Source: Blasia pusilla
Taxonomy: Eukaryota
Length of the DNA: 64,000 bases
Assembly: GCA_050084515.1 (NCBI GenBank)
Contig: CM114271.1
Span: 30,814,001 to 30,878,000 of the forward strand
Direction: 5' to 3'
Below the pieces are notes generated by a model, which saw only the letters and a list, made by a program, of their open reading frames with translations, made no database searches and was not told the origin of the DNA. The translations under genes and the position numbers were made by a program. Shown piece by piece: positions 3,368 through 39,117 of the stretch (positions are counted from its first letter, which is position 1; each line of letters begins with the position of its first letter).

Positions 3368-4720
3368 TCACGGGGTGAGATTCAACGAGGGCTGGAAAAG
3401 GCACATTTCGCAGTGATAGCTATTCAGCGGGTCGATGTGCGGAAGCCTAGTCCACGATTTCGTGACAAGATCATAGCACTGGACGTACCTTAGAATCTCC
3501 TCATCGCACACATTTACGAGCACCAAGTAGATCAAATTGCCCCCGCCTACACACAAATCCCAATGCCTAGTCCACCTGGTCACGGCGATTTGCTCGTTGA
3601 TCTCCTCCTCCAATTCCGAGACGACACGCCACAAGGAGCCATCTGCTTCAAGCTCCCAGCAGTGAAATATCAACGAGTGCATCAATCTGAGAAACATTCG
3701 GACACGACCCTGGCGCTCCGCGAGCTCAATGGCAAAAACATTGTCTCCCATTCGATGGCGTGGCATTGGAATGTCACACCAAGCATCCTGCTCTAAGTCG
3801 TACTTGATCACGCTCCACCCCGACACATCATCGCCATCGTCTTCGCGCAATCCGCGAACTACGCAGTACAGGCAATTGTCACAAGAAACAGGGGACCTCC
3901 TGAACCATGCGACCATCGGAGGATCGGCTCCCCAACTCCACGAGTTCGTGCTGCGATCGTAGACCTGGGTTTGAGGGCCCTCTTTGCTCACCATAGTCGA
4001 CACAACGATCTTGTACCTCTGCTGCTCCTTGTAAGTTATCATCCCCACCACGCACTTGGTCATTTTCGCAGTCCAGCTTCTCGATCTCATCGCGTGAAAC
4101 CTAACATGCCCGGTTCCCATCAAATCCAACGTCCCGACGTCCCCAATTTCGGCATCTGCGATGATCTCGAACAGTGGAGGGGGCAAGTTGCGCCAGCTTT
4201 TCGTAACGGGGTTGTACACTATGAGCCCCCCAGTCTCGCGATTGTGAAAGCAGAGCAGGCCACCATCAGATGTGGCCAAATACAGGTTCCTGTGCTTGAA
4301 ATTCAGCGAGTGTTGTGTCCATTTGCCTTTGGTTTGACTGTAGGACGTGAGGGATCCTGCCATACTGCAGAGGAGCTGTGGAGTAGGATCCGGAAGGCAG
4401 AGAGCACGGGAGAGAATGACAGAGTTCCACTGCTTACAGACAAGGCGCATGCCGATTAGGTCATCGGGAGGTAACATAGCGAGGACGGATTCCAAAATGT
4501 CATGGGGGAGTTTTACCCAGAGTTCCAGATCCACGTCGCTACCACTCACGGAGCTGTTCTTGATTGCAAGAGGAGTAGGAGATTGCTCGATCAAAAGAAT
4601 TTTGTGAATATTATCTCCCAGCTCACGAACTCTACATTTGAGCACCCGGCTCCTCTTGCCCATCGACTTCCTGTATCTCCTAATTTTGTCTCTCCAGGAA
4701 ACAAACTGTGCAATTAACAT
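3368..4720 (-). CDS. F-box protein with C-terminal kelch-like/F-box-associated propeller, intronless; tandem paralogue of 907..2187
   Basis: F-box LWVKLPHDILESVLAMLPPDDLIGMRLVCKQWNS; LATSDGGLLCF, VYNPVTKSWRNLPP, VYDRSTNSW, C-terminal LFQPSL. The ORF-track start at 4846 is GTG; the first in-frame ATG is at 4720, and the true start is uncertain. Confidence 0.88.
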   Translation of the reverse strand: MLIAQFVSWRDKIRRYRKSMGKRSRVLKCRVRELGDNIHKILLIEQSPTPLAIKNSSVSGSDVDLELWVKLPHDILESVLAMLPPDDLIGMRLVCKQWNSVILSRALCLPDPTPQLLCSMAGSLTSYSQTKGKWTQHSLNFKHRNLYLATSDGGLLCFHNRETGGLIVYNPVTKSWRNLPPPLFEIIADAEIGDVGTLDLMGTGHVRFHAMRSRSWTAKMTKCVVGMITYKEQQRYKIVVSTMVSKEGPQTQVYDRSTNSWSWGADPPMVAWFRRSPVSCDNCLYCVVRGLREDDGDDVSGWSVIKYDLEQDAWCDIPMPRHRMGDNVFAIELAERQGRVRMFLRLMHSLIFHCWELEADGSLWRVVSELEEEINEQIAVTRWTRHWDLCVGGGNLIYLVLVNVCDEEILRYVQCYDLVTKSWTRLPHIDPLNSYHCEMCLFQPSLNLTP

Positions 4721-4915
4721 TTTGTCACACCAACGATTCTCGATACCCCTGTGCAGTTCTTGGTGATTCACCTGCCCGCAACCGCTCTGATTCTGCCCAG
4801 CCGGCTTCGAGATCTCCGGTCCGGCCCGAGAACGATTCCGCTTCACCAGCCCACGCGGACCGTCATCGACAATTACTGCAAACCCGCGAGTCTCTGTTAC
4901 TCATATTCCAATTCG

Positions 4916-13070: not shown

Positions 13071-13074
13071 CTAA

Positions 13075-16000
13075 GAAGTTGACCTAAGATTCAATAACTT
13101 ACTAACATCTCGACGAATGGCCGTAGGTAAATTTGGCTCTAGGCCATAAAGTAGCAAGTACAATGAGAAAGATGATAAGCATGCCAGCTTGCTGAATCTA
13201 TATCCCATTGCCAACCACGGAAACTGGAGGTCCCAGTCTCCTAGGTGACCTCTCTGCAAGCCATACTTGCAAAATCCTCTCTTCACCGTCTGCACAACCC
13301 TCTCCGCTAGTCCATCCGCCTCAGGATGATCTCACGAAGTGGTGCGGTAGTCGATCAGCGTCTGATCACACAAGGCCTAAAACTCCCCGCAAAACTCCGT
13401 ACCCTGATCTGTCAACATCTCAGTTGGTGCACTGTAATGACTCAGCACTCGATCTAAGAAGGCATACGCTACTCCCTCACTCACTTTCTTAGGAAATGCA
13501 ACCAACTCTACCACTTTGAGAAGTGCTCGACCATCACCAACACATAACGACTATGGCGCTCCGTCAAAGGTAAAGGTCTTGAAAAATCCAAACTCCACTC
13601 TACCATCCTCCCAAACACGCAACACATCTGTCCCCTCCCACCGAAACCGTCCGGCTCGCTGTAGGATCCGATCTCGCTCTCTAGCACCCACTGTGCTCGC
13701 GACGCTGCCAGTGCGCAGGTACTCCAAGGCTACTCCATCGTCGTGAATATCTCAGCCACGTGTCCTCTCATCATTGCCCTCTGGATCTAAGGACTCTCCA
13801 TTTCACCTCGCTATCGAAGTCTCAGCAATCTGGCTCTCCATAGCTAACAAGCCCAAATAGGCTGACGCGTTCCATCTTGGCACCAACTCCTCATCACTCT
13901 CTCCATGCCATTGAGCTCCAGCGCATCTCGTTGACTCGAGCATTGGTTACGAATCAAACCATCTGCTTCTTGGTGGAGCGTCCCAGGTCTATGCACCACT
14001 TGGAAATCATACTCTTGCAACAACAGAGCCCACCTCACAAGCTTCCATGTATGCTTGTTGGACTCCATCAACCATTTAAGAGGCTGATGATCAATAATAA
14101 TGGTAAAGGGGTTGTCGAATAGATAATACATGAAATGTGCGACAACCCACACTGCAATCAAGCACTCATCCTCATACGAGATATACTTTGCCTCTACAGC
14201 GTTGTTTGAGCAACTAGCCTAAGCCACCATGAACTCTCTATCCTCATCGTCATGCTAGGTAAGCACGGCTCCAAGCCCCAACATGCTCCAATCAATACGC
14301 AACTAAAAAGGACGCCCCTTGATCGATCTCCTCAATATGTGCGCGGACGTCAACCCATCCTTGAGCAGCTGAAATGCTCTCTCCTGCTTATCCCCCCAAT
14401 GCCACTCTTGATCCATCTTGGTCAGCGACTTTGCAATCGAACTGAAACCCATGACGTACCGTCGATAGAAGTTCGCCAATCCCATGAACACACGAACTCG
14501 ACTCACATCTGTAGAGCATGGAATGCGTGAAATAGCCTCTACCTTTGTCTGTTGCACACCAAGGCTACCTAGGTATATGGTATGATCTAGGTACCCAATC
14601 TGGTCGTAGAAGAACTTGCACTTTTCCGGATGTAGCTTCAGCCCATGTAGCTGCAATTGTCGAAACACCTCCTCTAGGTGTCGCTCATGCTTCTCAACCA
14701 TGGCGCTAAAGACTACGATGTCATCAATATCATACCTAGCAAAATCCAAACTTGCCAAGATCCTATCCATGACCCTCTGAAACTCACCCGGGGCATTTTT
14801 TAACCCAAGTGATAAGAACCGCCACTGGTACAAACAATCCTTCCGGTGAGGATCGATGCCCCAAAATGCCGTCTTCTGTCTGTCCTTCAATCTGATAGGC
14901 AGTTGATGGTATCCGGCTTGAAGATCTAACGAACTAAAAACCTTTGCATGCCCAATAGCATGAAAGATCTCCTCATGGGTGGGCGTGGCATACCTATCAG
15001 ACTTCATCTGCCAATTGATAGGTTGGTAATCTCCACACATCCGCCTATCCGTCTAGTTGCCATGCACATCCTTCTTGGCGGGCATGATAGTGGGAAGATG
15101 CATACTCTCCATGCGACATCTTCACTAGTCCTACTCCTACCAAGTCCTCGCTCCTACTCTAAATCAGAGCCCTCTCCATGTCATTGTACCTTTAGGATCG
15201 TCGAAAGATTGGCATGTCGCTCGATAACTCAATGCGGATCCCTGGACCCTTCAGCATATCCAAGTCATGCATACTAAATGAAAAATAGCTTCTATAACTC
15301 CTAAGGAATTGGTGTATTCGGCACCCCTCTCCTTATGTCAACTTAGGGTCCATATCTGGCTCCCAAGTCTCCATCTTGACTTCAGTAGGACTCTCCGGCA
15401 TAGTTGTAGATGGTTGCTATGGTGCGACCCCGTCTCGGACAATAGAACCCGGTTGCTCCCCTCCAGGAAACTACAAACTCTGATCTCCTCCACGTGCAGT
15501 ACCCATAACCATGCTCGACGTTGTGGCTATTATCTCCCGGCGTACCTGCAAAACATCCCAAGAAGTCCAAAGGTGTCTCTCCTGATCATCCTTGGTATGT
15601 CGATCGCCTCTGATCTCGCTCCCAACCACTGCCTCAACCGTCTTGGTAGGCAAGCGGCTCACTAACGCATCAGCTATGATTTGTCGCATCCGCAAACAAC
15701 GCTGCTCGGCTACTCCTAAGCTGAAAATCCATATGAAGCAGTTCAACACCATCGTCCGACCCAAGACATGACATCATAATGCCTTGATAATGACAATATT
15801 GTCATCACTCCTATGGGGAATCCCATTGCTCACTCTCGCTCATCGGCGTTGGGCTCTACCAACCGCTGTACCTAGTCATCCCAAACCAAGCCAAGTCCGG
15901 CCTCCTTAAATGCATAGGAAGCTGGAAAACTCACCAATGTGGGAAAAGCTGCTCGTGGCATGCCAATCCTGTTGACCACAGTCAACGGCGGTCGATCATT

Positions 16001-18050
16001 GTGCCTCACTACTTGTGATCAACGATCAGGATTCAGAACAGAATCCACCAACAAAAGGGAGGAGCGTTCCACTCTCGCATACGCCCTCCGCAAAACCTCA
16101 TGTGGCACCAAGTTTTGGTCCACCAAAGACGCGGGCGATGTGCTCGTGAACGTACACTCGCCGTATCCAACAACACTGCCGGACCAATCCTTGCGCGCAT
16201 CTAATGTGCACTCATCATCACGCGGGACCTCGAATTGCCCAAAATCGGCATATTCTCCAAACTATACGCTGGAGAAAGGGACTGATCCTCCTGCAAGTAT
16301 CGCAAGATCCGAATCATCTCCCAAAACAACCTGGAACAAGAATCAGCTAACCCGCTACCTCGTCCAACACTCGATTGGCCGGGACACGGCCAACCAGCAA
16401 TGACCAAATCTATGGTCCCTATCCGCTCCAAGTCCTGCACCCCCAACAATGAAATGTCCCTTAGTAGTGAACTCTGGTAATCCTCAATGGCGGACGCACA
16501 CAACAAGTCGGGAAATCGGAGGCGTAACTGTGCCACATGGTGAAGTGAAGCGCACCTTGCAACATCATCAATCTCAACGTACAGGTATTGTTGCACGCGC
16601 ACTTCTGCCTAAAAAATAGTAGCTAAGCCTATGTTGATCCCTCCTAAGGGATCCAACACGCAAATACCCTCCTCTAGGATGTGCCACACAATCGGGGTGG
16701 TGTCCAAAGGGATCATAGTAGCACTCCAGGCTACCTCGGGTTCCTCTGACCCGTCACGCTCTAGTGCAAACGTGTGAATCCACGCCGTCTCCACATGGTC
16801 ATTGGCTAAGCATTGGAGTTCCTCACTCAAGCCCCACACCGGCACCATTCCTCCACGGAATGATGCGGCTATCATAACACTCCTCTCCCTAGAAGTGTCA
16901 GATGCGGGGATGTTCTCTCCACGGACATGTCCCTCAATCAAAATCGAAGGCCACTTGATGGCGCTGCTAAATGCTGCTAAAGTCGCCATCTCTCCTGGCC
17001 GTCGCTCGATCACTCCACCCGTGAATCGAACGGGGAGTGAACAAAGTCTTCAATCACCGGACTGCAATCCTAGTTTGTAGGACGCTAACTCCTCCTAGTA
17101 ATCTAGGGAAAATCCCATTGGGTACAACACTACTCAACCAACCAAGACGTCGTAGGACTCTACATCGCTCACGATCGCTTTGGCTTGCACCATGGACTCA
17201 TGTGTAGGATGTCCTGGGCAAATACTCACCATGACCTACTATTGGGTGATAAATTATGTGGTACTCGCTCCACCCAAGGATGTGTGTATCTTGAATGAAC
17301 AACGTTCCACATCGACTTTTGTCAAGCCCAAGCTTCTGAATGGTGCTTTCCCCAACATCAGAGGTTGCGATCTCGATTCCAACGGGATGCGCTGCGGACT
17401 AAAAACTCTACCTCCTGGGCTCACCAACTGGAAGACCTCTCCCCGGTTATCCAGCAACACAACACGAGGAGCAGCCATGGCATGCTCTATCGCGGGTCTA
17501 GCGGGCATCTCCGCCATCCTAGCAGTCGCAACCTGCCATGATTGTGAGATGTACATCCCGAGCATTGGCTCCAAGGGCAGGTCCATCACCTCCTGTGCAA
17601 TCACCTCTCAACCAGATGCATGAACTCCATCTCCACGCTCACATAGCGTAGCGGCCAGCCAAAAAACCTCTGCGGGTGTACCTTCCAACGTCATAACATC
17701 GGAAGTTGAAAACAACAGAGCAAGGTACACCATCGTGGCCGTCCCCAACATCGTACTGGACACATGCTCCTCCCGAGCATCAACAATAGGAGTCGTCGCA
17801 CTCGCCTCTCCCGTCTCCTTCTGTGCCTGCATACCAACCCCATCAACTCTCCCGGAATTCTGATCAAGACCCATCGATGGGGTCCTCATTGCCTCGGATA
17901 ACGTGAAAGACTGACGAAGCCTAGTCTGTTTTCTGGCTTCCCCCTCTGTGGATCCAACTCCACGGCGGCTCCACATGTAACAACAACGGCTGCCTCCAAC
18001 TGGCCAGCCGCCCACATCCAGCCAAGATCCACACTGGAGCCTATGCAAAA
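13075..18050 (-). mobile_element. Decayed Ty3/Gypsy LTR retrotransposon internal region: (gag?)-PR-C5 DNA methyltransferase-RT-RNaseH-IN; no LTRs recognisable
   Basis: Protease-like RIPLESRSQPLMLGK (about 17.35-17.4 kb); RT RMCGDYQPIN...FSSLDLQAGYHQL...GLKNAPGEFQRVMD...DIDDIVVFS (14303-15040); RNase H IDWSMLGLGAVL...IIDHQPLKWLM; integrase core WSLDF...LTDQGTEF...ADGLAERVVQTVKRG. The RT-RH-IN order defines Gypsy. Many stops and frameshifts. Confidence 0.92.
15730..16680 (-). pseudogene. DNMT3-like C5-cytosine DNA methyltransferase domain within the Gypsy pol region
   Basis: Ordered motifs: I VLDPLGGINIGL (degenerate F-x-G-x-G), II YLYVEIDD, IV DLVIAGWPCPGQS with catalytic Cys retained, V GLADSCSRLFWEMIRIL, VI YSLENM, VIII AHRPRLWWT, IX EPNADERE*AMGFP, X VLGRTMVLNCF. 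Interrupted by stops (for example 16609-16611 and 16201-16203) and frameshifts. Confidence 0.88.
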
Positions 18051-20152: not shown

Positions 20153-21331
20153 CAGGGTCCGGGGAGTTTTTTCGTGACAACCGGTACATTATCGGTCTCT
20201 ACAAATCCGAGCGGCAATTTTTGAAGTTTTTTTCATTCCAGCCGGCTAAACAGGTACGAATACAAAGGACACCCTCCCTGAACCTTCGGTTTTTGGCCGG
20301 TAAGTGACGACCTGAATCGGAAATTCTCAGATTCTTCCGGCTAGCTCAACACTTAACCCCGGTTCTCCCCGGACATTGATGATGATTACTACTTCATCTT
20401 GTTGGCATTTCAACATGCAGAAGCATGGCCTTTGAAACGTCTAACCAAAGTGGTGGGGTAGTGGCTTACGGTTTAGGGTGAACCCTTCACTCGCGTCCGA
20501 CCAATCTCTAACTTTCACGTCAAATTTATTTAAAACAATCAATTGGAAAAACTAATTATTTCTGTGTTAGCAAGCCACCATTTTCCTATTGGATTTTTTC
20601 ACAATCTCCTCTTGGGATGCAATTTCTTTTTTTAAGAATGATGTTTTTAAAAGTAAAATTTTTAAGTCCTTTCTTTACGGCGTCTACATACGACTATGTT
20701 TTTTGGTTCCTTCATATAAGATATCCACTATTTGGACCTCCACCCACCATGATCCATTCGGGATTCGTGTAGGCAGGATATCCTCATTTTCCATATGTGA
20801 ATTTCTTCGCTTATCAAAGGGCCATAGAATGGTTTTCTTCCGGAAACTTTATAGAAAATGATCCCATACAATTGGTAGGAGGACAATAGGGCGTTAACTT
20901 GTGATGTGTTTTGGTTCCTTGACTTGAAAATGAAGACAACCTACCCATTTTTACATTTGAGGGTCTTCCATTTTACAAGGTGCTAAATTTATGAGGCACA
21001 TCTCTCACTTCATGTGAGGGATGTACCTCATAAATACAACTAGATAGAAAAAAAATCCAAAATGGAGTTGGACGTAAGTAGGTGCACATCTACCTCCTCT
21101 TGGCCAATGTCCGGGGAGAATCGGGGTTACGTGTTGACCTGGCCGTAAGAAATTTAGAATTTCCGATTCACTTTATAAATCAACGGCCAAAAACCAGAAA
21201 AAATACAGGGGTTCTTCTTTGTATTTGTATCTCTTTAGCCGACCGGATTCAAGAAAATATCAAAAATTACCGTTCTGGTCTGTAGATACCAGAAATGTAC
21301 CGGTTCTCACCAAAAAACTACCCGGACCCTG
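20153..21331. mobile_element. Non-autonomous DNA transposon with long imperfect terminal inverted repeats (about 20153-20378 and 21105-21331)
   Basis: Left end CAGGGTCCGGGGAGTTTTTTCGTGACAACCGGTACATT...CCCCGGTTCTCCCCGGACATTG is the imperfect reverse complement of right end CAATGTCCGGGGAGAATCGGGG...AATGTACCGGTTCTCACCAAAAAACTACCCGGACCCTG. No transposase ORF inside; no clear target-site duplication. Confidence 0.8.
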
Positions 21332-22289: not shown

Positions 22290-25200
22290 TGTTGGAATAT
22301 GTAAATGGCAACAAGCCAAGCGTAAATACTACACACCACACTCAAGGTAAATGATGCAAGCCAACTTGACCGTTGCATGCTACAATGTTAACTTAGATGC
22401 GTGTTGCTCATGTATTAAATATACCACACAATAAAGTGCTATGACTACAAATTTCCACTTAGCAATTATGTTGAAAATATGGTATCAGAGTTGGTTAAAG
22501 GTAAGATCTCTAACCAATTTCACACGAGCTCAAACTGAACTACCTGTCTGAGTTCTTATGTGAGTTACTTCTTACTCCCAAGAGTGGAACTCACATATGG
22601 ATAGAAGATAGGATAGAACTCTAAACCCTTCTTACAAGAACAAATAGTATGAACATTTAGGTTAAGAGTCTAGAAAATTCTATACCTGATTTTTCTTTTT
22701 TCACATGGATAGACATGAAGCTAAGAGAAGAGGAAGGAGACTAGCTAGCATCATAAGTTGATCATCTAGAAGCACAAAGGACCAGCAAGATCGTAGTGAG
22801 CACCTATCACGATCAAAGTTGAAGAGCCTTACCCAGAGACCTCCAAGGAAGGTTGGACAATACTTGAAGCGGATCATGCTAGTACAAGCATGACCAAAAA
22901 TTGGCATTGTAGAGGCAATTTACTCAATGAAGATGAGCTTGACCTCGACTATGTATTCTCACCTAAGCCCTATGAAAGAGATCAGAGACAATTTGGCAGA
23001 AGTCAAGATCTGAATTGATAATGAAACCATGGTGGCCACCTTGATGAATAGTGTGGCCCATGATTCTTATGGGGACTTCATAAACTATCTAGCCATGAGA
23101 GAAAAGATGCCTACTTTGCTTAACCTATGTACCCTCCTACTTCACAAAGAGAGGAGACGCAACAACCTTGCCGCCCAAGAAGGACGAGAATTGGGACATA
23201 GCACATTATTCAACCAATAGAAGGGGACATTCCTGCGCGTGTTGATATGAAGAAAAGAGATCACAACAGCGTGACACATCCGGACCAAAGGCCCAAACCT
23301 TGTGCACCACCATGAAGAAGTTCAATAATAAGACCTATAGCATTGTCAGCAAGAAAGAATGCACAATATGTGGTAAGATTGGTCATGATTCAAATCAATG
23401 TTGGTATAGGAATGATCGCCATAATTGATCGATGAGACCACAAGAAAAGAAAAGAATTGAAGATTCCTTGCCGAGAATGCAAGAACTAGTTGAGCACTCA
23501 TTCCAAAAAGTGAAGTTAATGCTTGTACACTTATCTTTGCATTGGTTACCACAAAAACCAAATGGAAATGTGGTTCATTGATAGTGGTGTCAATAACCAC
23601 ATGATTAAGCATAAAGGTTGGTTTGCATCTTACAAACCTTTGATGAATGGACCTGAAGTATCAATGGGAGATCGCTCCATCCATTCTGCTATTGGGGAAG
23701 GAGATGTGCAAGTGACATTGCCTTTGGGTGAAAACTATACTATTAAAGATGTGTGGCATATCCCAACCTTAACACACAACCTCATTTCCATCGGCCAAAT
23801 CACCAAAAAAGAGAAGATTAGGGTTGTCATTCATTCCACAAGATGTGAGTTCTTACAAGAGCCTAAAAAACTATGTTCCTGCCCGAGGAGTAAGGTATGG
23901 ATGACTATGTCAACTTCTTAGCAAGCCAATCCCTCAACTATTTGAAAAATCTTCAAGCCGACTAAAAGTTTGGCATAAATGACTTCAACACCAAAGGCCT
24001 TAAGTTGTTCAGCAAAGACAACATGGTTGCACGACTACCCATTTTGAATGGAAAGCTATCCACTTGTGACACATACTTACATGGCAAGCAATCTAGGAAA
24101 AAAATTGACAAATAGACCTTCTCGCAAGCTCCTACTCCTCCTGCCTAGTCCACATTAACCTTGGAGGATCAATTCAAAACGCTTCAATATTTGGGGCAAG
24201 GTACTATGTGCTATTAGTTGATGGCCATTCAAGATTTCTATGGGTTTCTTTCTTGCAACACAAATTTGATGCATTAGATGTATTCAAGAAATTTCTTACC
24301 ATGATGAGAACTGAAAGGGCCGTAACATTGGAATCCTTGCATCTACACCTTAGCGAACTCCCCTCAGAGGTGAAGATGATACGAATAGACAAGGCAGGTG
24401 AATTCATAGGGAAAACATTTGAGATCTTTTGTTGTGCTTGTGGCATCCATCATCAAGTGACTACTGCCTATACCTCACAACAAAGTCGTGTTGTCGAGAG
24501 GAGGGATTGAACGATAGTTGAGATAGCGAGGTGCGTGTTGAAGGAGTGAGATCCCCCCAACTACCTCTAGACAGAGGCTAATAGCACAACTACCTACATC
24601 TTGAACAAGAGACCAACAAGGGCTTTGGAGGAGAAAACACCTGAAAAAGTCTTCACTAGTGTCAAACCAAATGTCGCATAGCTTTGCATCTTTGGATGTG
24701 TACCTTATGCACATATATCAAAAGAATTGAGAAGAAAACTTGATGATAAAAGTGTACGATGTCTATTTATTGGCTATGGCACTAGAGAGAAATCTTATAA
24801 CGTCTTTTCCCACGAGCATCACAAAATGTTTTTGAGGCATAACGTCATATTTTATGAAGCCACTCCCCACTCGAAAGAGCATCAATCAAACGACCAAGAG
24901 TGGTCTCAAACCTCCAACGACGAGGGATCATAAAACGAATATGACAAGGATACACCATCTTATGGATCCACAACTTATATTGATCCACCACTAACACTTG
25001 CTCAAGGAGAGCAAATATTAGACCTAGAACACTCACTTTCAATACCACCTCTACAAAACTCAAGTCGACAACGACAACTTCCTTCTAACTTACGTGAGGA
25101 TTACATTCTACTCCTAGTTCTCTTTCTAAATCATGTACCATATCACCAAACTCCCATTGAGCCTCCATCATTCCAAGAGACGTGCACTAATCCACAATGA

Positions 25201-26193: not shown

Positions 26194-28506
26194 CTAGGAA
26201 TCAAATGACCTTTGATTCCTGCAGTCCAAGTTCTCGCCTGGGTTGACGGAACCCAGCTCACGGCAGAACTTTCGGTAGTACTCGACACGTCGGTCGGCTT
26301 CCGCAGAGTTCTGGTTGCACTCCAGCCTTCCATTGATGATATTGATGGTCACTCCAAATCCTGGACGTCTGTTGGCAGCGTTGTCGTTGCTGGTTGGAAT
26401 CCAACTGCCAGTCATCACGGCGTGGCAAGAGGGTTTGTTCCATTGAGTTGTAGACCAGAACCAGATGGCGGACTTGAATGCCATCACTCCCTCCCTGGCA
26501 ACTCGCTCGGGCTGGCTCAAGAGATTCTCACGGATTGCGTCACCGAATTGTCCGTAGTTGAAGTTCCTGCTCACACACGTGTTTCCAAACCATTGAGATG
26601 GCACATGTCTGCTCTAACGCGTAATATGTAATGTTCAGGTTTTGCACTGAACAATGTAGAGTAGCAGGTCCTCACCACACACAACTCTCATATATATAAT
26701 GCATCGCAATCTCCTTGAGAAATCTACACACGTGTTTCATCACATTGTACACAGATCCCGAGCATGAGAGCCCCATCACACACGGATTACGGGTTTTCCG
26801 TCCACCTGTTACATTTAGGAATGGGAGACAAGCCTTTTTGGTGAAGGTGGACAACTTCTAACGAAACTCAATGGCTCGTGAAGGTGGTAGATTCCAACAA
26901 ACTCTCGTGCATGTATGAACCCAAGACCAGGCTTAATGGAACTGAGGGAGCCATGGTGGGTGTCTTGAAACGCTGTAACTGGCGTCCGCAACTAGCACAT
27001 GGAGTGGAAGAGCTCTAGACGAAGAGCAAGTCCCGTCAGAACCACGTAAGAGTCCAAGATCTCGACCCTATGTTAGTTAGAATGTGGAAGATCATTCCTT
27101 GTTGTAGGAGTCGTTTCATATACTGATGTTACAAGGATGTGACAGTTTAAGTAATAGTTAAGTCACGGTTGACAGGTGAGGTAACGGCTGTAAGTAGAAT
27201 GTGTATCAAGCAACAACTGTTTTCGTTGATTGGTATAAGGTTTCTCGTGACTGAGACATCTTGTTCCAGATTTGTTCATGCAATCTCATAAATGCCTGAG
27301 GGGCTCCTTAGTTGAGGGCCACTGTGAGTATCGTGTTAGTTCGTTCGTGGAGAGTGAGTGAAGGCTTCTTTACCTACACACTCGTGATTCACGAGTACTA
27401 ACTACAGCACAGTATGTAATATTGAGAGTATGAGAGTATTGATAGAAAAATGGACCTTCAGTCCATCCATCAACAATCGGTCGAATGGTACCTAGCCAAC
27501 CTGGAGATGGATTGCTCGAAGCTATAGATATAGACCGGTGCACATGAAAAAAAATTGTCGGGAAACCGTGACCCCATCTATCTTACCAGGAGAGCTGCAG
27601 AGGACCACGTCCGAAGTATCTCTTTCCTGGTACACAAGGCCACTCAGACTTCCCATCGCAGTAGTCCCCTTGCGGATTGATCTCCTCCACGTACCTCAGT
27701 CCTGTCCAAATTATGCAAAACCACGAAAGCAATTCCCATTTTATCCCCGGTAGGTTCCAGCCAGCTAGCAATATCAGGTATAGAGTTCACGAGTCTTCGA
27801 TGGAGTCAGTATGAACGAACACAATAATTCCTAATGGCAGGCACTGCCTAGTTAGCTCTAGCTAGCTACCATAAATGCAATTCAAAGCTCGAGGTCTGGA
27901 TCGATCCCAGAGCGGACTACAGATACATGAGTTTATGACGTTAGGCAATTCCCAGGGGATGAAATCTAGCTCTATCGATGTCCTGATCATAGATTGTCTA
28001 CAACAGTACGCTGAACACTTGTAATCGACATCTGGAGGAGCTGAAGAGAATTGATAACTACCGGTGGTTTCATGATCGATATGGGCCAGAAAAGCAGCGA
28101 TTTCTCTCTTCTTCTGTCCATCGTCACCGGTTGTTCCAAAGCGAGGAAATTCTTCAGCAGCACGGATGAAAGCATCGTAGGTATACACGGAGTGTCGATT
28201 GGGGAATTGCGTCTCGAAGAAATTTCTGGAGACTATGTCCTGGACTCTGCCCTCACCAGGACTAGGTCCCGCTCCTCCACCACCACTGCAAGGCCCACTC
28301 TGGCAACCCTCACCACAGTAATCATCATCAAATCCACAGTAGCTCCACTTGCTGCAGCACGCATTGTTGTCACACAGTGCGAAATTCCCCTCCCTCCCAC
28401 ACTGCTGTGCTTCACATACTGACAGCAAGAAGGGAGCCACTACTGCTGCTGCCACCATCACCACCAGCACCGTGGGATTATCGCGCCTCCCCATCATCGA
28501 TGGCAT
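26194..28506 (-). CDS. GH19 chitinase with signal peptide and CBM18 (hevein) domain, 3 exons: 28506-28062, 27701-27587, 26566-26194; 310 aa
   Basis: Hevein domain [40 protein letters not shown]; Gly/Pro linker; GH19 motifs [52 protein letters not shown]. Exon phases are consistent. The start could be any of the nearby Met codons. Confidence 0.95.
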
Positions 28507-29595
28507 CTTCTTGCAGAGGCTGAAACAAACACTTCCACTGGATCGAACTTTTACTCGGTTCAGGTCCTTTCTCGACCCAACATCGCTTGAGACTGTGTGA
28601 GTGCAAAGCATAAAACGCGGCCATCTTATACCTACTGCTGAGAACCCCGCGCACCACCTTCTTTGCTTTACGAAGCTGTTACAACGCGTATGCCAATTTT
28701 GACCGCTCCGGTTTGAGCCGACCCAAGGTCTCTTGCCACTGACATGTGAGACTTCTCCTGCCCTCCTGCGACCTGTCACAGGAGGTCACGCACCTCCCTG
28801 ATCTAGGACTACGCACAAGCGCTAGCATATTCCGTAGTAAAGTAATAGGGGACGCCTCAGAGGGTTTATTTTAAATCAACTAGGGGGAATAATCCACGGT
28901 TGAAGTTTAATTAAATTTTTATTTTTATTTTTTAATTTCTTTTTGCTAAATTAATCGGAGGGCTTCATTTGAACAGCTTGTATTTGAATGAGACATGATT
29001 TTTTTTTTACTTGGGACACTTGTCAGTTCGGAAGTAAAAGAGGAAACTTTTTGATGTAACCAGCTGTATTAAGACACTTGTGAACTTCCTAGCTCTAGCT
29101 CATTGCATATAAATCATCCGCGTCCCTAAGTTGGAGTAGACTCAACGCAGGTGTCAGGGAATTGAAGAAGGTGGTGGTGAAGAAAGTGGCGGCAAAGTGG
29201 AGGCAGCATCAAGGTGTTGGAAAATTTGGAGAAAGCTTATCGAACCAAGAGGGTAAATCTCTGTTTCCAAGTAGGAATTGGTTTGGATTGTTTTACTTCC
29301 GCGTGGGTTTCTCCATGTGAAAGAGGAGAAGCGCTCTCTCGCTCACAAAATCTTCGAACAAGCTGGCTGCAAACGAATTCCAAGAATTCGTGACTTGTCA
29401 GTGTAGGAAGTAATTTTCGTCAGATCAGACTTCGTAAGTTTGCAATTTCCCATTCTGATTTGCTTCAGAGGAGCGGAGAACTAGCCGCACTACATCTTTG
29501 TGTCAACGAATCACAGGGCCTCCCTGACTCACTTCATTCGCGTTGGCGTATCGCAATCACGGGGAGTCTGTAATCGACTCTGTGTAGGCAGGCCT

Positions 29596-30599: not shown

Positions 30600-32045
30600 G
30601 CTTAGGCGTTTCCGTCCGTCGCTTGAGTGGATGCGTTGGAGCTCCACAAGAGTAGTGTTCCTCAAGCATTTTCGTCCGTCCTTTGAGTTGGAGCTCAGCT
30701 TCTCTCAGCTGTTGGATTCTTATTTGCTTCTCTCTCTGCGAACGAAATAGAGGAAGAGTATTGTTCCTTCGTCATTTTCGTCCATACTGTGAGTTGGATC
30801 TCCGCTTCCCTTAGCTGCTCGAACGAAATAGAGACACTTTTGTCCGTCCTGTGAGTGGGATGCGTTGAAGCTCTGCTTCTCTCAACAATTGAATTCTAAC
30901 GAAATAGAGGTATTTTCGTCCATCCTGTGAGTGGGATGCGTTGGAGCTCGCTTCTCTCAGCAATTGAATTCTAACAAAATAGAGGTATTTTCGTCTGTCT
31001 TGTGAGTGGGATGCGTTGGAGCTCCGCTTCCCTCAGCAGTTGAATTCTAACGAAATAGAGGCATTTTCGTCCGCCTCAGAGTTGGAGCTCAGTTGTTGGA
31101 TTCTCATTTGCTTCTCTCTCTGCGAACAAAATAGACGAAGAAAGTATGTTAGCCTGTAGTGTCATACTCCAAGTTGTGTTGGAGTTATGCTATGCATCAG
31201 TCCACATCAATGGCACAGATCACCACCCAATAATAGCACGGAGCAGCAGTTGAATTCTAACGAAATAGAGGCATTTTCATCCGCCTCTGAGTTGGAGCTC
31301 AACTGTTGGAGCTCCACAAGAGTAGTGTTCCTCAAGCATTTTCATCCGTCCTCTGAGTTGGAGCTCAGCTTCTCTCACTTGTTGGATTCTTATTTGCTTC
31401 TCTCTCTGCGAACGAAATAGAGGAAGAGTATTGTTCCTTCGTCATTTTCGTCCGTACTGTGAGTTGGATCTCCGCTTCCCTCAGCTGCTCGAACGAAATA
31501 GAGGCACTTTCGTCCGTCCTATGAGTAGGATGCGTTGGAACTCTGCTTCTCTCAACAATTGAATTCTAACGAAATAGAGGTATTTTCGTCCGTCCTGTGA
31601 GTGGGATGCATTGGAGCTCCGCTTCCCTCAGCAGTTGAATTCTAACGAAATAGAGGCATTTTCGTCCGCCTCTGAGTTGGAGCTCAGTTGTTGGATTCTC
31701 ATTTGCTTCTCTCTCTGCGAACAAAATAGACGAAGAAAGTATGTTAGCCTGTAGTGTCATACTCCAAGTTGTGTTGGAGTTATGCTATGCATCAGTCCAC
31801 ATCAATGGCACAGATCACCACCCAATAATAGCACGGAGCAGCAGTTGAATTCTAACGAAATAGAGGCATTTTCGTCCGCCTCTGAGTTGGAGCTCAACTG
31901 TTGGATTCTTATTTGCTTCTCTCTCTGCGAACAAAATAGAGGAAGAAAGTATGTTAGCCTGTAGTGTCATACTCCAAGTTGTGTTGGAATTATGCTATGC
32001 ATCAGTCCAGAGCAATGGCACATATCACCAACCAATAATAGCATG
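30600..32045. repeat. Higher-order tandem repeat array built from about 75-bp subunits
   Basis: Recurrent CGAAATAGAGG(T/C)ATTTTCGTCC...GTTGGAGCTC...GTTGAATTCTAA units. The block starting at 30636 is repeated at 31306. GAAGAAAGTATGTTAGCCTGTAGTGTCATACTCC occurs three times (about 31137, 31732, 31942). Confidence 0.95.
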
Positions 32046-32479
32046 GATCATCGAGGGAGCAAGAGTCTGTACGTGGGTTGTTTGTTCTCCATCAGCGCCC
32101 ATTAATGGCACGGCCCACCGAGGGAGCAGGAATGTGTAGGCAATCTGGTCGATGGGCCAGAGCAATGAGCTAAGTCCCAATGTAAACCTAATTGTGTTCG
32201 TAGCAGGATTCGATCCCCGCCCACTTGATCCGAAGCCGACGACCCGGCCCTAATGGCGTAGGCCTGCTAGATGTTGGAAAGAGGGGGATTCTAGATTTTA
32301 TGTATGAAAATAGTTTTTTCCCTGCTCAGATCACGTTCTCTTACAAATATCATAGCCTTTTTCTTATGTGAGCTTTATGAAATTATACAAATAGTGAGGT
32401 TTTTCTTACTTGAAATATCTAATTTATATTGATATTTTAATTTGCTCTTGTTAAGTTTGCAGTGTCGAATTGAGCCTAA

Positions 32480-35400
32480 CTTACGCCATGTCAACTCTCT
32501 CATTGAGCTACAAGAGGCCGTTAATTGTGAAAGAAATTGTAATAATTTTGAGTCCTGAATATGTGGTAGAGAGAGATAAGCATAGATTTTCATTATCTCG
32601 CTCGCAACGAAAACGAAAATTGTTTGATGTGGACTCTAAATTTTCTGCTGCTATTTCAAATGGTTTCAATGAGACTGAGGAGGTTAGAGAAGTCTCAATA
32701 GGCCAGGAAATTTTGATTACTCTCAATAGTAATAACTCACTTGGCACAAATAGTAGAAGGTATTTATTCATTTATAACATTTCTACCTTTTCTTATATAT
32801 ATATTTAGAATTTTTTTTCCTATTTTGACTTTTCTTATTCTTTGTCCAGGTTGGTAGCAACACCTACCAATGTCAATGTTCATGCTTCAATAGACACTAC
32901 ATCATCTCCCATGTATGTTTCTTCCACTTATTAATTTCTTATTTTTTATTGGTCTTTTTCGAAGTTGATTTTTTTAATAGAATTATTATGACTTCATTTT
33001 TATAAATATTTTTTTTCTCAGTCTTCCACTTCCGCCCAACCCCCAAGGATTACATGTTATGCTTCAAGTTGCACGAGCACAAGGCCAGAGAAGGAGGCAC
33101 AATCTTCTTCCTACAGAAGAAGTCGAGGCCATGACTACTAATGACTTTCATGCTCAAGCTAATATAAGGTATGCTTTGTATGCTTTTATTATTGATTCTT
33201 TCTATGTGGTCTTAAATTTTTATGAATGATTTCTAATAACAACATTTCTTGCAGGCCAATAATGGTACATCATGAAGTTATTCCAAACTCTAGGATTGTG
33301 GTCGTACCATCTCCAATGTATATTTCTACACTGTATACTCAAATTATAATATAGATATGTTTGTATGTATATTTATTTTTATTATAATCATATGTATTAA
33401 TTTCTTAACCTCTACTTACAGTTTCCTACCAATCCTCTACGATTATGTCACATTCGTCAAGTAGCTCGAGCTGAGGGCCAAAGAACAAGACGTGTTCATT
33501 TGGATGAAGTACATGAGTTACAGATGTTGGAAATCCATTGATAAGGAGTGATTCAATGGATCTAATCGTGAAGGCCACATGGAAGTGAATGAAGACAATG
33601 TACATGCCTCGATTCCCAATGTGGGATCTTTTTTGGATGAAGTACATGAGATTGCACATGTTGGCAATCTGTTGATAAGGAGTGATGCCATTGGAGCCAA
33701 TTGTGAAGGCCACCTGGAAGAAAATGAAGACAATGTACATGCCTCAATTCCAAATGTGGGATCCAGAAGGGTTGTGAACTTGAAAAAGTTGCTCAATATT
33801 GCACGTATTCCTAACTTTGAAGAAAAGCACATTCTAATTCTTAGGTTGGAAGATCATATTGATAGTATGAGTGGTCGTTTTAGTGTTGGAATTATGAATG
33901 TTATTTGTGTGAGTTGCAATGCTCTACATTGGAAGTGTGAGAGAGTGAAGTATATTAGGTTTATAAGCTTGCCTTTTGGTATGTGTTGTGGGCATGGTAA
34001 GATTCAATTACCATATTTGACAGCTTCACCTTCTATACTAGCAGAATTACTTTATGGTAGGAGTTCAAATAGTCTTCATTTTTTGCGCGTTGCACGTGCC
34101 TATAATAGTGCTCTTCAATTGGCATCTACTGTGGCTCATGTAACAGAGCAACGAGGTGGTACATGAAACTTCAGGATTCAAGGTGGTGTATATCATTCTA
34201 TTGGACCTCTTCATGCTGAAAGTGGTGCTCCTCCACAATTTTTGTGCAAATTTATATTCATGATGATGAGCATCAGATGGAAAATAGAAGAAGGATTATG
34301 AGTGGAGATTATCGAGATCAATTGAGGCGAGAGATCTTAAGGGGATTACAAGATATGTTCCATGCCCATAATCCATATGTGGCTCTATTTCGAAATGTGG
34401 CTATTGATCCATGTAATTCTGACTTCCATATTGTTCTTAAGGGTAGTAAGCAAGGTCTCGATGCGAAACGATACACCTTGCAAGTTGCTTCAGAGATTGC
34501 AATTATCTTGCTCAGAGATGGGAGTGAGCCAGTAGAAGGACATGATATTATTGTTCGCTTACATGGAGGAGGGCTTCGTCGTCTATCAGATCTGAGTGAT
34601 ATCCCATTGCACTTTTTTTTGCCTTTTGTTTATGGTGAAGCAGGTTGGCATCTAGGGATACCTTTGCAAGTGCAACATGATCATAGACATGATGCGCCGT
34701 TAAGAGGGGATGCTATGATGGACGAGGATGAAGATGATATTGTACAAGGGGGAATGCAAGGTGAAGTTACCACTCATGAGGCGAGCTCAAAGACCATTAC
34801 AACTTTACAATTTGCTTCATTCAGACTTCAAATGCGAGCTAACGCTATGGATAATAATCGATTGATGAAGTTTGGTCGTCTTACTCAAGAATATATGGTG
34901 GATAGGTATGCGACTATTGAAATGCAACGGCTAACTTGGATACGATTGCATCAAAAAGAGTTTAGAGTTGATTTATACCAAGGTGTCAGAGATGCCATGA
35001 CTCGGCATGATGTGAACGGTCGAGGCTTAGGGAGACGTATTATCTTATCTTCGTCTTTCATAGGAGGACCCCGTTACATGCATCAATTGTACCATGATGC
35101 TATGGCCATTATGAGACATTTTGGGAAGCCTTACTACTTTTTGACTATGACTTGTAACCCTAAATGGCCTGAGATTACTTCTGCTCTGCTTCATGGGCAA
35201 TCAATGTCTGATCGTCCTGACTTGGTTGTACGTGTTTTCCAACAAAAGAAGAAGGAGTTATCGAGACTTATATTGGATAAGCATATTTTGGGTCGAGTAG
35301 TAGGATGCATTCATGTAGTCGAGTTCCAAAAGAGAGGGCTACCACATGTGCATATCCTAATTATTCTTGCTTCTGAGGATAAGCCAAGGACAACCTCTGA

Positions 35401-38400
35401 TTTTGACGATATTATATCTGTTGAGATCCCCAATCCTATCACTCATCCTAGGCTACATTCTACTGTAAGAAATTGTATGATTCATGGTCCGTATGGAGTA
35501 ACACATCCAACTACACCTTGCACGGATTAAACGACAAAAAAATGTTCCAAAGGATACCCAATACCTTTTGCATCAATGACAATGGAGAATGAGGATGGAT
35601 ATCGTATTTATAAGAGGTAATTCATTGGTTTTGTTGTTTATTTCATGATTTAATGCTCTTCTATTAGTGTGCTATGTATTTTCCTCAACTACTAACACAC
35701 TTCTATATGTGTTTATGCAGGCGGGATAATGGGAGATTGATTAATAAGTCAAATCATGATTTTGATAATCGTTGGGTGGTTCCATACAATCCAATGTTAT
35801 GTACTTTATTTGATTGTCATAGAAATTTGGAGATAACAAATAGCATCTTGGCTGTAAAGTACTTTTATAAGTATGTGTACAAGGGATATGATGCCATATC
35901 ATATACCTCATCATGGGAGGATACTATTGATGAGACATCATTATATCTTGATGCAAGGTATTTCGATTCTTCTATCTTTCAAGCTCTCCCTATTTTTTCC
36001 TATGATATTATGTGGGAGCCTAACAATATTGATATTGTGTGGTATGAAGGTACCTTTCTTCTTCAGAAGCATGTTGGCGAATCTTGAAGTTTAGTCTATA
36101 TGCAGAGCAACCAAGTATTGTGAGATTGATTGTTCATCTTCCAGACAGTCAAAAGGTATATTTTCATGGGCAAGATTCATTGGGTAATATTCTGGAGCGA
36201 AGTAAGGAAACCACTCTCACTCAATGGTTTGCAACAAATGTTTCTAATTCAACTGCGCGACAATATCTTTATTTGGAGTTCCCTTCTCATTACTATTGGA
36301 ATAAGAAGCAATGGCATTCACGTGAACGCGCAAGAAAAGGATGGGTTTTTCATATACAAACATCCTATTGGACGTTTGTATATGAAAAACCCGGGTAAAA
36401 TTTCTATTCTCTATTAGGATACAATTATTAAGGCAAAATTTTAGTTAAAGTTATAAACACATTCGTGCTTCCTTCCTAATATTTTTTTTTGGCTAATCCT
36501 AGCTGAAGGGGAGCGTCATTGGTTACGATTATTTCTCCATCATGTAAGAGGAGCTCAATCATATCAAGATTTGAGAACTATCGATGGTGTAGTTTATCCT
36601 ACCTTCAAAGAGACTGCTATTCAAATGGGACTTTTGGAGGACGATAGAGAGATCTTTTGTTGCTTTGAAGAGGCGGTTGTCATTCGCACCGGCTATTCAT
36701 TACGTCTACTCTTTGCCATCAGTCTTCTATATAATACACCTTCTCTTCCGTCTATAGTGTGAGAACATTTTTTGGTTCCATTAACTGAAGATCTTCTACA
36801 TCAAAAGCGTGAGATAATATGCATGCCTTTTCTTAAGTTCATTTTTTTCTTATGAGTTTTTTAATGTATTTTATTTATTTTTTAACTTCTATATTTGTTC
36901 CTTATAACAGAGAATAGGTATTCTGACCCTTCCATTGGATGTTCACATTATTAATCTTGCGTTATTGGAGGTCCATAACCATCTTCAAGATCATGGTAAG
37001 AGTATGGCGGACTTCCTCAACATGCCTCAACCAGATTTCCAAGCCCGTAATTTATCTATTTCACATCTAGAAGAGGAAGAGCTCTCCTACGATCATGATA
37101 TGCTTTGTGAACGTGTGAGAGCAGAAGAGATATCTTTAAATGATGGACAACAAGCTATTTGGGAAGTTATTTGTAATGCTTTTTGAGATATCTTACAAGA
37201 TGCGGCGCCTTTTGTAAGTGGATATTATGCATAGTACATTTTAAGATGACTTTTTTACTCTTTAAATCTTTGTAAGTTTTATTCTTTTTAAAGTGCATTT
37301 CTGTCACTAAAAACATGGATTTTCAGGAAAAACTTTTCTTTATCGATGATCCTCGCGAAACGGGAAAAACCTTTTTGTACAACCTTCTTCTTGCAATAGT
37401 ACGAAGCGAGGGTCATATAGCTCTTGCAGCTGCATCTTCAGGAATTGCCGCTTTATTATTGGATGGAGATCGTACTCCTCATTCTCGATTCTCGATTCTT
37501 ATTCAAGTACATGAAAGCTCTACTTGCAAGTAAGTCTAGATTTAAGATTTTATATTATCCTTCATAAATGTTCCTCACATATTGTTTTGTTATCTATTTT
37601 CTAGCCTATCGGTCAATAGTCATATGGCCCGCCTTATACAAAAGGGGAAGTTGATCGTGTGGGATGAAGCTCCTATGACCCATCGTCATGCATTCGAGGC
37701 CGTTAATCGTACTTTCCAAGATATCATGGGTTTGATGGATACTCGATTACGAGACTTGCCTTTTGGGAGGAAGATCATTTTATTCGGTGGTGACTTTCGA
37801 CAACTTCTTCCAGTTGTTTATCGTGGAGATTGTGCTACAATTGTGCGTGCAACATTGAGGAGATCTCTTATTTGGTCTCACATGAGATTATTGAAACTCA
37901 CTACCAACATGAGAGTTAATACTTTACAAGGTATTTAAGAATTAACCTAATCTTTTTCCTTTTTCATTTCATGTGGTTTTTGTTTATTTTTAGTATGTAC
38001 TTATTTCTTGATCTTATATTTATTTGTAGGATATGCAAGAGAAGAGCAAGAAGCGTTTGCAACGTGGTTACTAGAGATAGGAGAGGGTCGAGTACCATTA
38101 CGTTTGGACCTTGGAGAGGATTTTATACAAGTTCCAGATGCGATAATTGTAAAAATGACAAGGATTAATGATCTCATTGACGTTGTTTATGGACACGATG
38201 TTAATATGTGGAGTGACGTTGATTTCTTGAGGGGTACATCCATTTTGTCAACCAAGAATACAACTGTAGATATTATAAATGCGGAAATCATGTCTCGATT
38301 TCTAGGAGAGGTAATATTTATGTTCTTGAATATCATTATTATATTTTCATTACCTATTGCTACATTTTTCTATCATCGCTCTTATTATTAATGATTTATT

Positions 38401-39117
38401 TTGTTTTTGCAGGAGCATACTTTCTTGAGTGCTGATTCTGTTTCCGACAACGAGATGAGACTTGTTTATCCGACAGAATTTTTGAACACATGTTTACCAT
38501 CTGGACTGCCACCTCATTGTTTGACTTTGAAGATTGGAGCTCCTATAATGCTATTACGGAATATGAATGGAGCAAAGGGACAAGCAAATGGGACTCGGCT
38601 GGTGATAGGTGGCTTTAGTAGACATCTTATAGATGCAAAAATTATCACAGGAAAAAACATCGGAGCTCGAGTTTTCATTCCAGGCATTCCATTGATTGCA
38701 TCTGATTCTGGCCTACCTTTTGATTTGCGACGATTTCAATTTCCTATACGTCCTGCTTTTGCAATGAGGATTAATAAGTCTCAAGGTCAAACATTAGATA
38801 GAGTCAGTATCTACTTGCCAAATCCAATATTTTCTCATGGGCAATTGTATGTTGCCTTATCAAGAGTAGGCTTGAGGAATTCTATTCATATTATGACAAA
38901 TAGTGAAAAGGCTATTAACAAAATAGGTGTTTATACTAGGAATGTTGTATATAATGAAGTGCAAAATTAAAATTAAAATAACATTACATGTGTCAAGTCT
39001 TATATTGGTATGCTTTTTTAGACTCGTAATACTTCATCCATTGAAAAAAAATGGATATGATTAATTTTGTATATGCTAAATTTTGATGCCGATGCATCGC
39101 ACAGGCATTCTTACTAG
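32480..39117 (+). mobile_element. Helitron with intron-interrupted, pseudogenised Rep/Pif1-helicase gene; 3' end CTAG at 39114-39117; 5' end not located
   Basis: Rep motifs YFLTMTCNPKWPEI, VVEFQKRGLPHVHILI (HUH) and KYFYKYVYKG. Pif1 motifs DPRETGKTFLY (degenerate Walker A), IVWDEAPM, GDFRQLLPV, INKSQGQTL and HGQLYVALSRV. GC-rich subterminal hairpin-like TGCCGATGCATCGCACAGGCA followed by CTAG|T. Confidence 0.93.

Follow-up and report, generated by a model that had tools for sequence, protein, structure and literature searches.

A decayed Ty3/gypsy element with a DNMT3-like methyltransferase domain in Blasia pusilla, and a bryophyte-type retroelement family with the same domain order

Retroelements that encode a DNA methyltransferase (DNMT) have been described in dinoflagellates and in one charophyte alga. 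In the available passages of de Mendoza et al. (2018, Nat Commun 9:1341, PMC5890265), these are DNMT-bearing DIRS and LINE (long interspersed nuclear element) elements in Symbiodinium and a gypsy-type element, KnitGypsy-Dnmt3, in Klebsormidium nitens. The same passages report that the SymbioDIRS-Dnmt3 domains carried out de novo CG methylation in yeast, that the DNMT of KnitGypsy-Dnmt3 has a Ka/Ks below 0.2 and that its acquisition is placed "in the K. nitens lineage"; for other DNMT-bearing retroelements, self-methylation of the new complementary DNA (cDNA) or of the insertion is proposed. Additionally, the accessible text of a recent preprint (bioRxiv 10.64898/2026.05.21.726589) mentions "streptophytes (Gypsy-DNMT3)", and that of PMC12344493 mentions DNMT3s embedded in retrotransposons. 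No report of DNMT-bearing retroelements from bryophytes or other land plants was found in the literature, including the accessible parts of PMC6453930, PMC11982613 and PMC12344493, although the supplements of PMC5890265 and PMC12344493 may list some.

Here, we analyzed a 64,000-nucleotide stretch of the genome of Blasia pusilla (assembly GCA_050084515.1, contig CM114271.1, positions 30,814,001 to 30,878,000 of the forward strand), referred to below as the window and numbered from its first letter. An original prediction, made from the letters alone, had placed a DNMT3-like cytosine-5 methyltransferase (MTase) inside a gypsy retrotransposon on the minus strand. We find that the minus strand between 13074 and 18029 is an old, frameshifted Ty3/gypsy fossil of about 5 kb, truncated at its 5' end and lacking long terminal repeats (LTRs). 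Very probably it is the fossil of a bryophyte-type Ty3/gypsy family with the order gag, protease (PR), DNMT3-like MTase, in-frame stop, reverse transcriptase (RT), RNase H (RH) and integrase (IN).

A methyltransferase relic and its retroelement relatives

The central domain of the fossil is a genuine C5-MTase relic. Its motifs lie on the minus strand at the places given in the original prediction, in the order VLDPLGGINIG, YVEIDD, IDLVIAGWPCPG, SRLFWEMIRIL, LENM, AHRPRLWWT, ERE*AMGFP and LGRTM, and the catalytic cysteine codon within IDLVIAGWPCPG is TGT at 16384-16386, as claimed. Alignment to an intact relative yields a span (Table 1) close to the 15730-16680 proposed earlier. A PF00145 search, which had been suggested as a check on the claim, matched the read-through translation at E 3.7e-7 and 30.3 bits, above the curated Pfam cut-off of 22 bits, and the same family was recovered at E 2.8e-6 in a 9-kb scan of the window. 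Across three reading frames, the domain shares 58-70% identity with that of a Calypogeia relative, P0005 (tblastn; P numbers denote related proteins and L numbers metagenome loci).

The decay of this copy is extensive. The first frame runs from the protease-MTase linker to AHRPRLWWT and is interrupted by two in-frame stops (16609-16611 and 16201-16203); the second, entered after a frameshift near 16114, reads NLVPHEVLRR ... NADERE*AMGFP; and the third, after a shift between 15785 and 15770, reads LGRTMVLNCFIWIFSLGVAEQR and onward. Three further in-frame stops, at 16019-16021, 15872-15874 and 15830-15832, bring the number within the domain to five. Motif IV reads PCP where relatives have PCQ, and motif VI reads ENM where they have ENV; despite these changes, the order of motifs I, IV, VI and VIII is kept. 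The window copy is dead, with its catalytic motifs, protease site and reading frames all broken, and the five stops, two frameshifts and altered motifs bear out the earlier description of it as such.

Using a 212-residue read-through piece of the window MTase as the query of a word-indexed protein search, we found 24 related proteins (E 8e-70 to 7e-42, 43-58% identity), whose own PF00145 scores range from 27.7 to 46.1 bits. A host is named for 15 of the 24: Marchantia polymorpha for 12, Calypogeia fissa for two and Sphagnum troendelagicum for one; a later look-up added Sphagnum jensenii as a further host. The retroelement context recurs in these relatives. In Marchantia, P0004 leads from a gag with CCHC knuckles through protease motifs into the MTase, the models P0014 and P0020 give the order MTase, RT and RNase H, and the annotation holds seemingly whole gag-PR-MTase reading frames. 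A distant metagenome lineage, P0051, encodes CCHC, aspartic protease, PF00145, RT, RNase H and integrase in one open reading frame (ORF) of 2188 residues. Furthermore, a scan of metagenome contigs gave 188 candidate stretches, 107 of which code for a relative; 80 were retained as loci.

Direct repeats of 163-339 nucleotides (nt) and 86-94% identity bracket the coding part in four of these loci (L003, L057, L036 and L071). The best are those of L003 and L057, at 307 and 337 nt and 91-94% identity, and those of L036 and L071 are shorter or weaker. Since repeats flank the coding part in relatives, we regard the family as one of LTR elements of about 9 kb. With LTRs in the relatives and none here, the family therefore qualifies as an LTR retrotransposon, of which the window holds a truncated copy.

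The MTase is collinear with retroelement genes in the window copy and in more than 100 relatives. A degraded and LTR-less copy would, if the locus were viewed alone, permit a local rearrangement, such as a host DNMT3 pseudogene or a nested insertion that landed once in or beside a gypsy copy at this place. However, the window is collinear through protease, linker, MTase, tail and RT, and the same domain, in the same place and with the same linker and tail, occurs elsewhere in 24 proteins and 107 metagenome stretches, which renders such an explanation vanishingly improbable. A one-off pseudogene insertion is excluded by these recurrent collinear relatives. The idea of an integral, intronless element domain was sound in this respect: the same order is present in at least three named bryophyte genera as well as in the 107 metagenome stretches, and sister elements, rather than lacking the MTase, carry it in the same place.

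A DNMT3-like domain ahead of a conserved stop

We searched all PDB sequences with a profile built from the 24 relatives. DNMT3A ranked first (6.4e-16), followed by DNMT3C (1.3e-13), DNMT3B (9.3e-13) and tobacco DRM (1.7e-7); HaeIII, DRM2, HhaI (4.6e-5) and DNMT2 gave weaker matches, at 1e-5 to 1e-4. DNMT3A aligns in linear order, motifs I-VIII coming before IX-X: profile positions 779-963 match residues 9-173 and positions 1053-1084 match residues 238-269. The DRM chains cover just positions 776-901, at the DRM C-terminal end. For the Calypogeia domain, an AlphaFold model built from a 32-row alignment reached a predicted local distance difference test score (pLDDT) of 92.1 and a predicted template modeling score (pTM) of 0.90. 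Among the Foldseek matches listed for this model there were only DNMT3A, B or C (E about 3e-19, 21-24% identity), with target template modeling (TM) scores of 0.76-0.83 for chains comprising the catalytic domain alone. Profile and predicted fold thus support a family MTase that is, among characterized methyltransferases, DNMT3-like and not circularly permuted. The original prediction had proposed exactly this likeness, and the linear motif order agrees with it. Pfam detected no PWWP or ADD domain in P0004, P0005, P0010, P0011 or P0013, in which gag and protease occupy that place.

The catalytic motifs are strongly conserved in the family. GWPCQG and LENV each occur in 20 of the 24 relatives. 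The proline, cysteine and glutamine of motif IV, the glutamate of motif VI and several further motif residues are invariant in 20 diverse domains, and little or no variation is seen in motifs I, IV (PCQ), VI (ENV), VIII (R-x-R) and IX among 20-32 diverse members. We estimated ratios of nonsynonymous to synonymous substitution (dN/dS) by the Nei-Gojobori method for 48 loci. Locus pairs with dS of 0.05-0.1 have a median dN/dS of 0.93, a sign that copies degenerate once inserted; the median is 0.18 where dS exceeds 0.8, an upper-bound-like estimate given that deep dS is saturated (1.6-3, or not computable). Between the window and the loci, the MTase ratio is 0.13-0.17, a rough estimate that likewise involves saturated dS, and dN is 0.32 for the MTase, 0.17-0.31 for RT-RH and 0.45-0.50 for the protease. 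This pattern is that expected of a functional transposon gene, with a constraint on the MTase that appears about as strong as that on RT. Neutral evolution in all copies, an outcome considered beforehand, does not describe the MTase, which is not neutral on deep branches (0.13-0.18).

Such constraint could also have preserved the domain for a role other than DNA methylation: it might serve the particle as a structural or DNA-binding module, or it might be an RNA methyltransferase that modifies the element's own RNA. In line with this, the passages of PMC5890265 report that the K. nitens Gypsy-Dnmt3 domain produced no methylation in yeast, in the sole published assay of such a domain and one whose outcome its authors call inconclusive, and raise RNA methylation for the LINE-borne DNMTs. 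The weak PDB matches of our profile also include a tRNA enzyme, DNMT2. However, near-invariant catalytic motifs are not expected of a pseudo-enzyme, and the DNA enzymes DNMT3A, B and C are by far the closest solved relatives. We therefore consider a role outside DNA methylation quite unlikely.

The boundary between the MTase and RT is marked by a stop codon. The MTase tail and the beginning of RT are both present in 59 sequences, namely the window and 58 loci; in 55 of these, RT lies in frame 0 with the tail of the first ORF. Among 57 junction-aligned sequences (56 metagenome loci and the window), the same codon is a stop in 55, as TAG in 37 and TAA in 18, and reads TAC in the other two. It is followed by CAACC in 53 of the 57, extended to CAACCC in 49 and to CAACCA in three; the window, with TAG then CAA CCA, belongs to the latter, and most loci have CAA CCC instead. 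The divergent lineages L026 and L061 share the stop. Annotated models also end in the tail just before it, namely P0004, P0007 and P0024 of Marchantia and P0005 of Calypogeia, together with P0011 and P0018. The four Marchantia models examined that reach RT/RNase H (P0014, P0016, P0017 and P0026) bypass the stop in the manner of a predicted intron, no two of them through the same junction, and P0051 has a sense codon at this position within its single ORF.

The family layout is thus an ORF1 that comprises gag, protease and MTase, and an ORF2 that comprises RT, RNase H and integrase, in frame behind the stop. Since the stop after the MTase is conserved, the enzyme ends ORF1, and RT probably needs readthrough; both the conservation and the codon context suggest that RT-RH-IN is probably made in this way. 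On this point the original prediction, which had expected a single PR-MTase-RT reading frame, was mistaken: the stop follows the MTase in 55 of the 57 loci, and Marchantia and Calypogeia models end there. Sharing of an ORF between MTase and RT does occur in the distant P0051, and in the family of the window the MTase lies in the gag-PR frame instead.

TAG followed by CAA forms the core of the tobamovirus-type leaky context, and CAACCC departs at its last base from the CAR-YYA readthrough motif. The stop might alternatively be a true terminator, with RT-RH-IN made by reinitiation at an AUG, from a spliced or subgenomic RNA, or supplied in trans. An ATG lies two codons past the stop in most metagenome loci (CAACCCATGG), so that reinitiation is possible; the prevailing hexamer, CAACCC in 49 of 57, is the one that deviates from the readthrough motif; and no supported RNA structure lies downstream, where RNAalifold on eight sequences predicted a hairpin about 45 nt past the stop, within a conserved peptide-coding stretch, with a covariation term of -0.91. 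However, frame 0 for RT in 55 of 59 sequences is required by readthrough and not by reinitiation, neither the window nor L026 has the ATG, the TAG followed by CAA matches the leaky core, and P0051 simply has a sense codon there. Overall, termination proper seems rather unlikely to us, and readthrough is the reading we retain.

A locally conserved hairpin-like pairing, CUUGGG ... CCYAAG, was noted in L001 and other loci about 45-75 nt past the stop, and in the window at about 15340-15372; the stretch encodes the conserved peptide ETWEP..GPKL, and its covariation is too weak for an RNA structure to be claimed.

Several findings count against a family of this layout. The metagenome copies are all decayed: a plus-strand ORF of at least 400 amino acids is present in seven of the 80 loci, the longest with 957, the MTase is stop-free in a single frame in three of 48 loci, and no intact full element was seen among these copies. 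The 56 metagenome loci behind the stop count are paralogues from few sources, and the stop is spread over a small number of independent lineages (the main family, L026, L061, the window, Marchantia and Calypogeia). Pfam recognized no protease in the window, P0004 or P0011, even at E up to 1, and neither LTRs nor a target-site duplication were found around 13-18 kb by a repeat finder and self-blastn. The saturated deep dS, the unsupported structure and the ATG downstream of the stop, and the yeast result for the K. nitens domain fall on the same side. With these points weighed, the window copy is still, in our judgment, very probably a fossil of the family outlined above.

The window copy and its surroundings

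The gypsy pol order PR-RT-RNase H-IN is present in the window, with the protease visible by alignment and the integrase by tblastn (Table 1). The copy is collinear with residues 427-1243 of P0004 and then on to residue 2142 of P0051 (tblastn). Residues 1-426 of P0004, which include the CCHC knuckles, are unmatched anywhere in the window; because the P0004 match begins only at residue 427, the gag N-terminus is taken to be missing from this copy. The D-S-G site of the protease has become E-S-R at about 17371-17379, followed by the ...SYDVLVG*VVLYPMGF block, and in P0051 the corresponding Asp_protease_2 match has E 2.8e-4, under the Pfam cut-off. RT and RNase H are better preserved, with matches to PF00078 (RT, E 2.4e-22), PF17917 (RNase H, E 1.6e-23) and PF17919 (E 6.9e-20); their Pfam extents are about 14579-15007 for RT and about 14009-14398 for RNase H. 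The integrase is weak by Pfam (rve, E 0.0027, under the cut-off), its tblastn match stops at residue 2142 of the 2188 of P0051, and a 3' LTR was not recognized. CpG depletion as a mark of past methylation gave no signal, with an observed/expected ratio of 0.75 in the element vs 0.72 in the whole window.

Table 1. Features of the Ty3/gypsy fossil, in minus-strand reading order
Feature	Position in window	Strand	Basis or remark
C-terminal gag remnant; N-terminal gag and 5' LTR absent	17471-18029	-	tblastn to P0004 from residue 427 onward, 44-45% identity
Protease remnant	17090-17470	-	Alignment with relatives reading LLDSGAQPLMLGK and SYDVLVGGAVLYPMGF
Conserved protease-MTase linker	16672-17089	-	Collinear alignment with P0004, P0005, P0009 and P0011
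DNMT3-like C5-MTase, decayed	15690-16671	-	PF00145, tblastn to P0005, motif comparison
ORF1 C-terminal tail; extra decay stop at 15471-15473	15420-15689	-	Aligns with the P0004, P0005 and P0011 tails and with metagenome loci
Family-conserved in-frame stop TAG, then CAA CCA	15417-15419	-	Boundary between gag-PR-MTase and RT-RH-IN
RT and RNase H, with a frameshift near 15091 and stops	13925-15365	-	Pfam; tblastn to P0014, 58-59% identity
Integrase remnant, in two frames	13074-13787	-	tblastn to P0051 residues 1970-2142, 49-62% identity, E 7e-33

A second trace of the same family was observed at 59320-59999 on the minus strand, as a solitary relic of the late-gag/protease part with 29-67% identity to P0014, P0004 and P0011 (tblastn). 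Pfam found no domains between 54.0 and 61.5 kb, and neither an MTase nor RT lies near this relic. Just outside the element, an inverted repeat of about 230 nt and 79% identity occupies 20153-20378 and 21105-21331.

The remainder of the window holds various other features. On the minus strand, a long intronless F-box-type ORF (907-2187) has matches among the F-box proteins of Marchantia (34%) and of Calypogeia (28%) and to another protein at 64%; a second long uninterrupted ORF adjoining it (3368-4900, minus strand) is similar by eye only. Recognized likewise only by eye are ORF fragments of a copia-type gag/protease and integrase (23520-24510, plus strand), ORFs resembling class I chitinase exons with a cysteine-rich chitin-binding domain (26194-28785, minus strand), and long ORFs of a Helitron-type replication/helicase protein with Pif1-like motifs in an AT-rich region (33552-38970, plus strand). 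Direct repeats of about 300 nt, with 74-98% identity and a spacing of 210-670 nt, lie at 30635-32054.

Algal sister elements, proposed function and described systems

A HMMER scan of the family profile against 1.84 billion representative proteins yielded 8801 proteins with an E value no higher than 0.001, of which 524 do not exceed 1e-30; many are 1200-3456 residues long. This set revealed a second architecture, RT-RNase H-MTase-integrase-PHD, assigned by Pfam in P0055; P0077 has the same order, with an MTase that Pfam missed and the family profile placed. Proteins of this order comprise P0055, P0077, P0128, P0171, P0276, P0204 and P0211, and one Tetradesmus member comes from a transcriptome record. 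In a further search, the best 120 of 208 matches (E up to 1e-5) mostly carry, by precomputed Pfam domains, an integrase and a PHD finger and nearly always RT and RNase H, and the algal hosts include Scenedesmus, Haematococcus lacustris, Chromochloris zofingiensis, Hariotina reticulata and Tetradesmus deserticola. The matches listed from this search and from the HMMER scan were all of retroelement type. A literature search naming Haematococcus, Gypsy and DNA methyltransferase returned no paper on green-algal gypsy elements of this order.

Among 292 MTase-bearing proteins, RT precedes the MTase in 131, the MTase precedes RT in eight, and 153 show the MTase only. We built a FastTree phylogeny of 248 MTase domains, rooted at the midpoint and without an outgroup. 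In this midpoint-rooted tree the bryophyte family forms a clade of 22 tips (support 0.997), and a clade of 46 tips (support 0.98) contains all six MTase-before-RT tips and no RT-before-MTase tip. Given this separation of the two orders, we regard them as two separate old lineages of one MTase family.

What the enzyme would do for an active element can be proposed from this arrangement. We think it rather probable that active elements would chiefly produce Gag-PR-MTase and that occasional UAG readthrough would yield Gag-PR-MTase-RT-RH-IN, so that the MTase would be produced in Gag-like amounts and enter the virus-like particle. In the particle or in the nucleus, the enzyme may then methylate the element's own new cDNA or insertion de novo, a step to which we give appreciable weight but somewhat less than even. 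The mechanism as a whole, from Gag-level expression through packaging to self-methylation of cDNA, is one that we infer.

A DNA-active enzyme might instead be directed at the host genome or the integration site, where it would mark or select heterochromatic landing sites or perturb host silencing. In the algal sister elements the same MTase is joined to an integrase and, at the C terminus, to a PHD finger, which is a chromatin reader; this hints at a chromatin-directed role. However, the bryophyte MTase shares its frame with Gag-PR and is distant from the integrase, and Pfam detected no reader domain in P0004 or P0011; for the bryophyte family we deem a host-directed target rather improbable. 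Self-methylation of the element is our working proposal. Taken in its fullest form, namely an undescribed liverwort/moss LTR lineage whose Gag-PR-DNMT3 with its leaky UAG would be Gag-stoichiometric and particle-borne and would have its cDNA methylated before integration, and which would together with the algal clade represent an ancient, green-plant-wide capture of DNMT3, the proposal is tentative and, with all its parts combined, may well not hold.

Cytosine methylation is the main route by which plants silence transposons, and a transposon with its own de novo methyltransferase therefore reverses the usual picture. Marchantia is transformable and has methylome resources, so what a transposon gains from methylating DNA could be tested there. 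In 2018 the phenomenon was described from dinoflagellates and a single charophyte alga; our analysis extends it to land plants, including Marchantia, places the enzyme in the Gag frame with a conserved stop behind it, and adds that green-algal gypsy elements very commonly encode an enzyme of this family. If the proposal is correct, capture of DNMT3 by gypsy elements would be ancient and widespread in green plants and not specific to Klebsormidium. The window copy itself is a mere fossil that points to this family.

Compared with known systems, the family domain resembles animal DNMT3A, 3B and 3C as its best profile and fold matches, in the linear order of motifs I-X, in a motif VIII of AHR-x-R followed by aromatic residues, and in a motif IX of E-R-E-x-x-x-G-F. 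It differs from them in its low identity (21-24%), in a motif IV that reads PCQ and not PCN, and in being fused to Gag-PR, with no PWWP or ADD domain found. The MTases of the green-algal gypsy elements are 33-47% identical to the bryophyte-family domain and share its invariant motifs, whereas their position after RNase H and directly before the integrase, and their terminal PHD finger, are different.

Among the retroelements described in the literature, the "EpiLTRs" of Cymbomonas and Euglena (bioRxiv 10.64898/2026.05.21.726589) also encode a C5-MTase; as described in the accessible text, however, their DNMT is DNMT4-like, sister to DNMT4, and located at the 3' end of pol. SymbioDIRS-Dnmt3 and SymbioLINE-Dnmt of dinoflagellates (PMC5890265) likewise encode a C5-MTase, and by their descriptions in the available passages they are set apart as DIRS and LINE classes. 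The closest described system is KnitGypsy-Dnmt3, which is compared here by its description in those passages, no K. nitens sequence being among the named matches of our searches for relatives. Both have an intronless, non-permuted DNMT3-type domain with conserved catalytic residues inside an LTR gypsy-type coding region, and both show purifying selection (Ka/Ks below 0.2 there, dN/dS of 0.13-0.18 for deep pairs here). They differ in host, a charophyte there and bryophyte-type land plants here; in the repeats, which have a DIRS-like arrangement there and are plain flanking direct repeats in the relatives here; and in the place of the enzyme, which is placed "into the Pol polyprotein ORF" there and lies in the gag-PR frame before a conserved stop here. 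Set against the K. nitens elements, two features may be new: a host range among land plants, and an enzyme in the Gag-PR frame ahead of a conserved stop.

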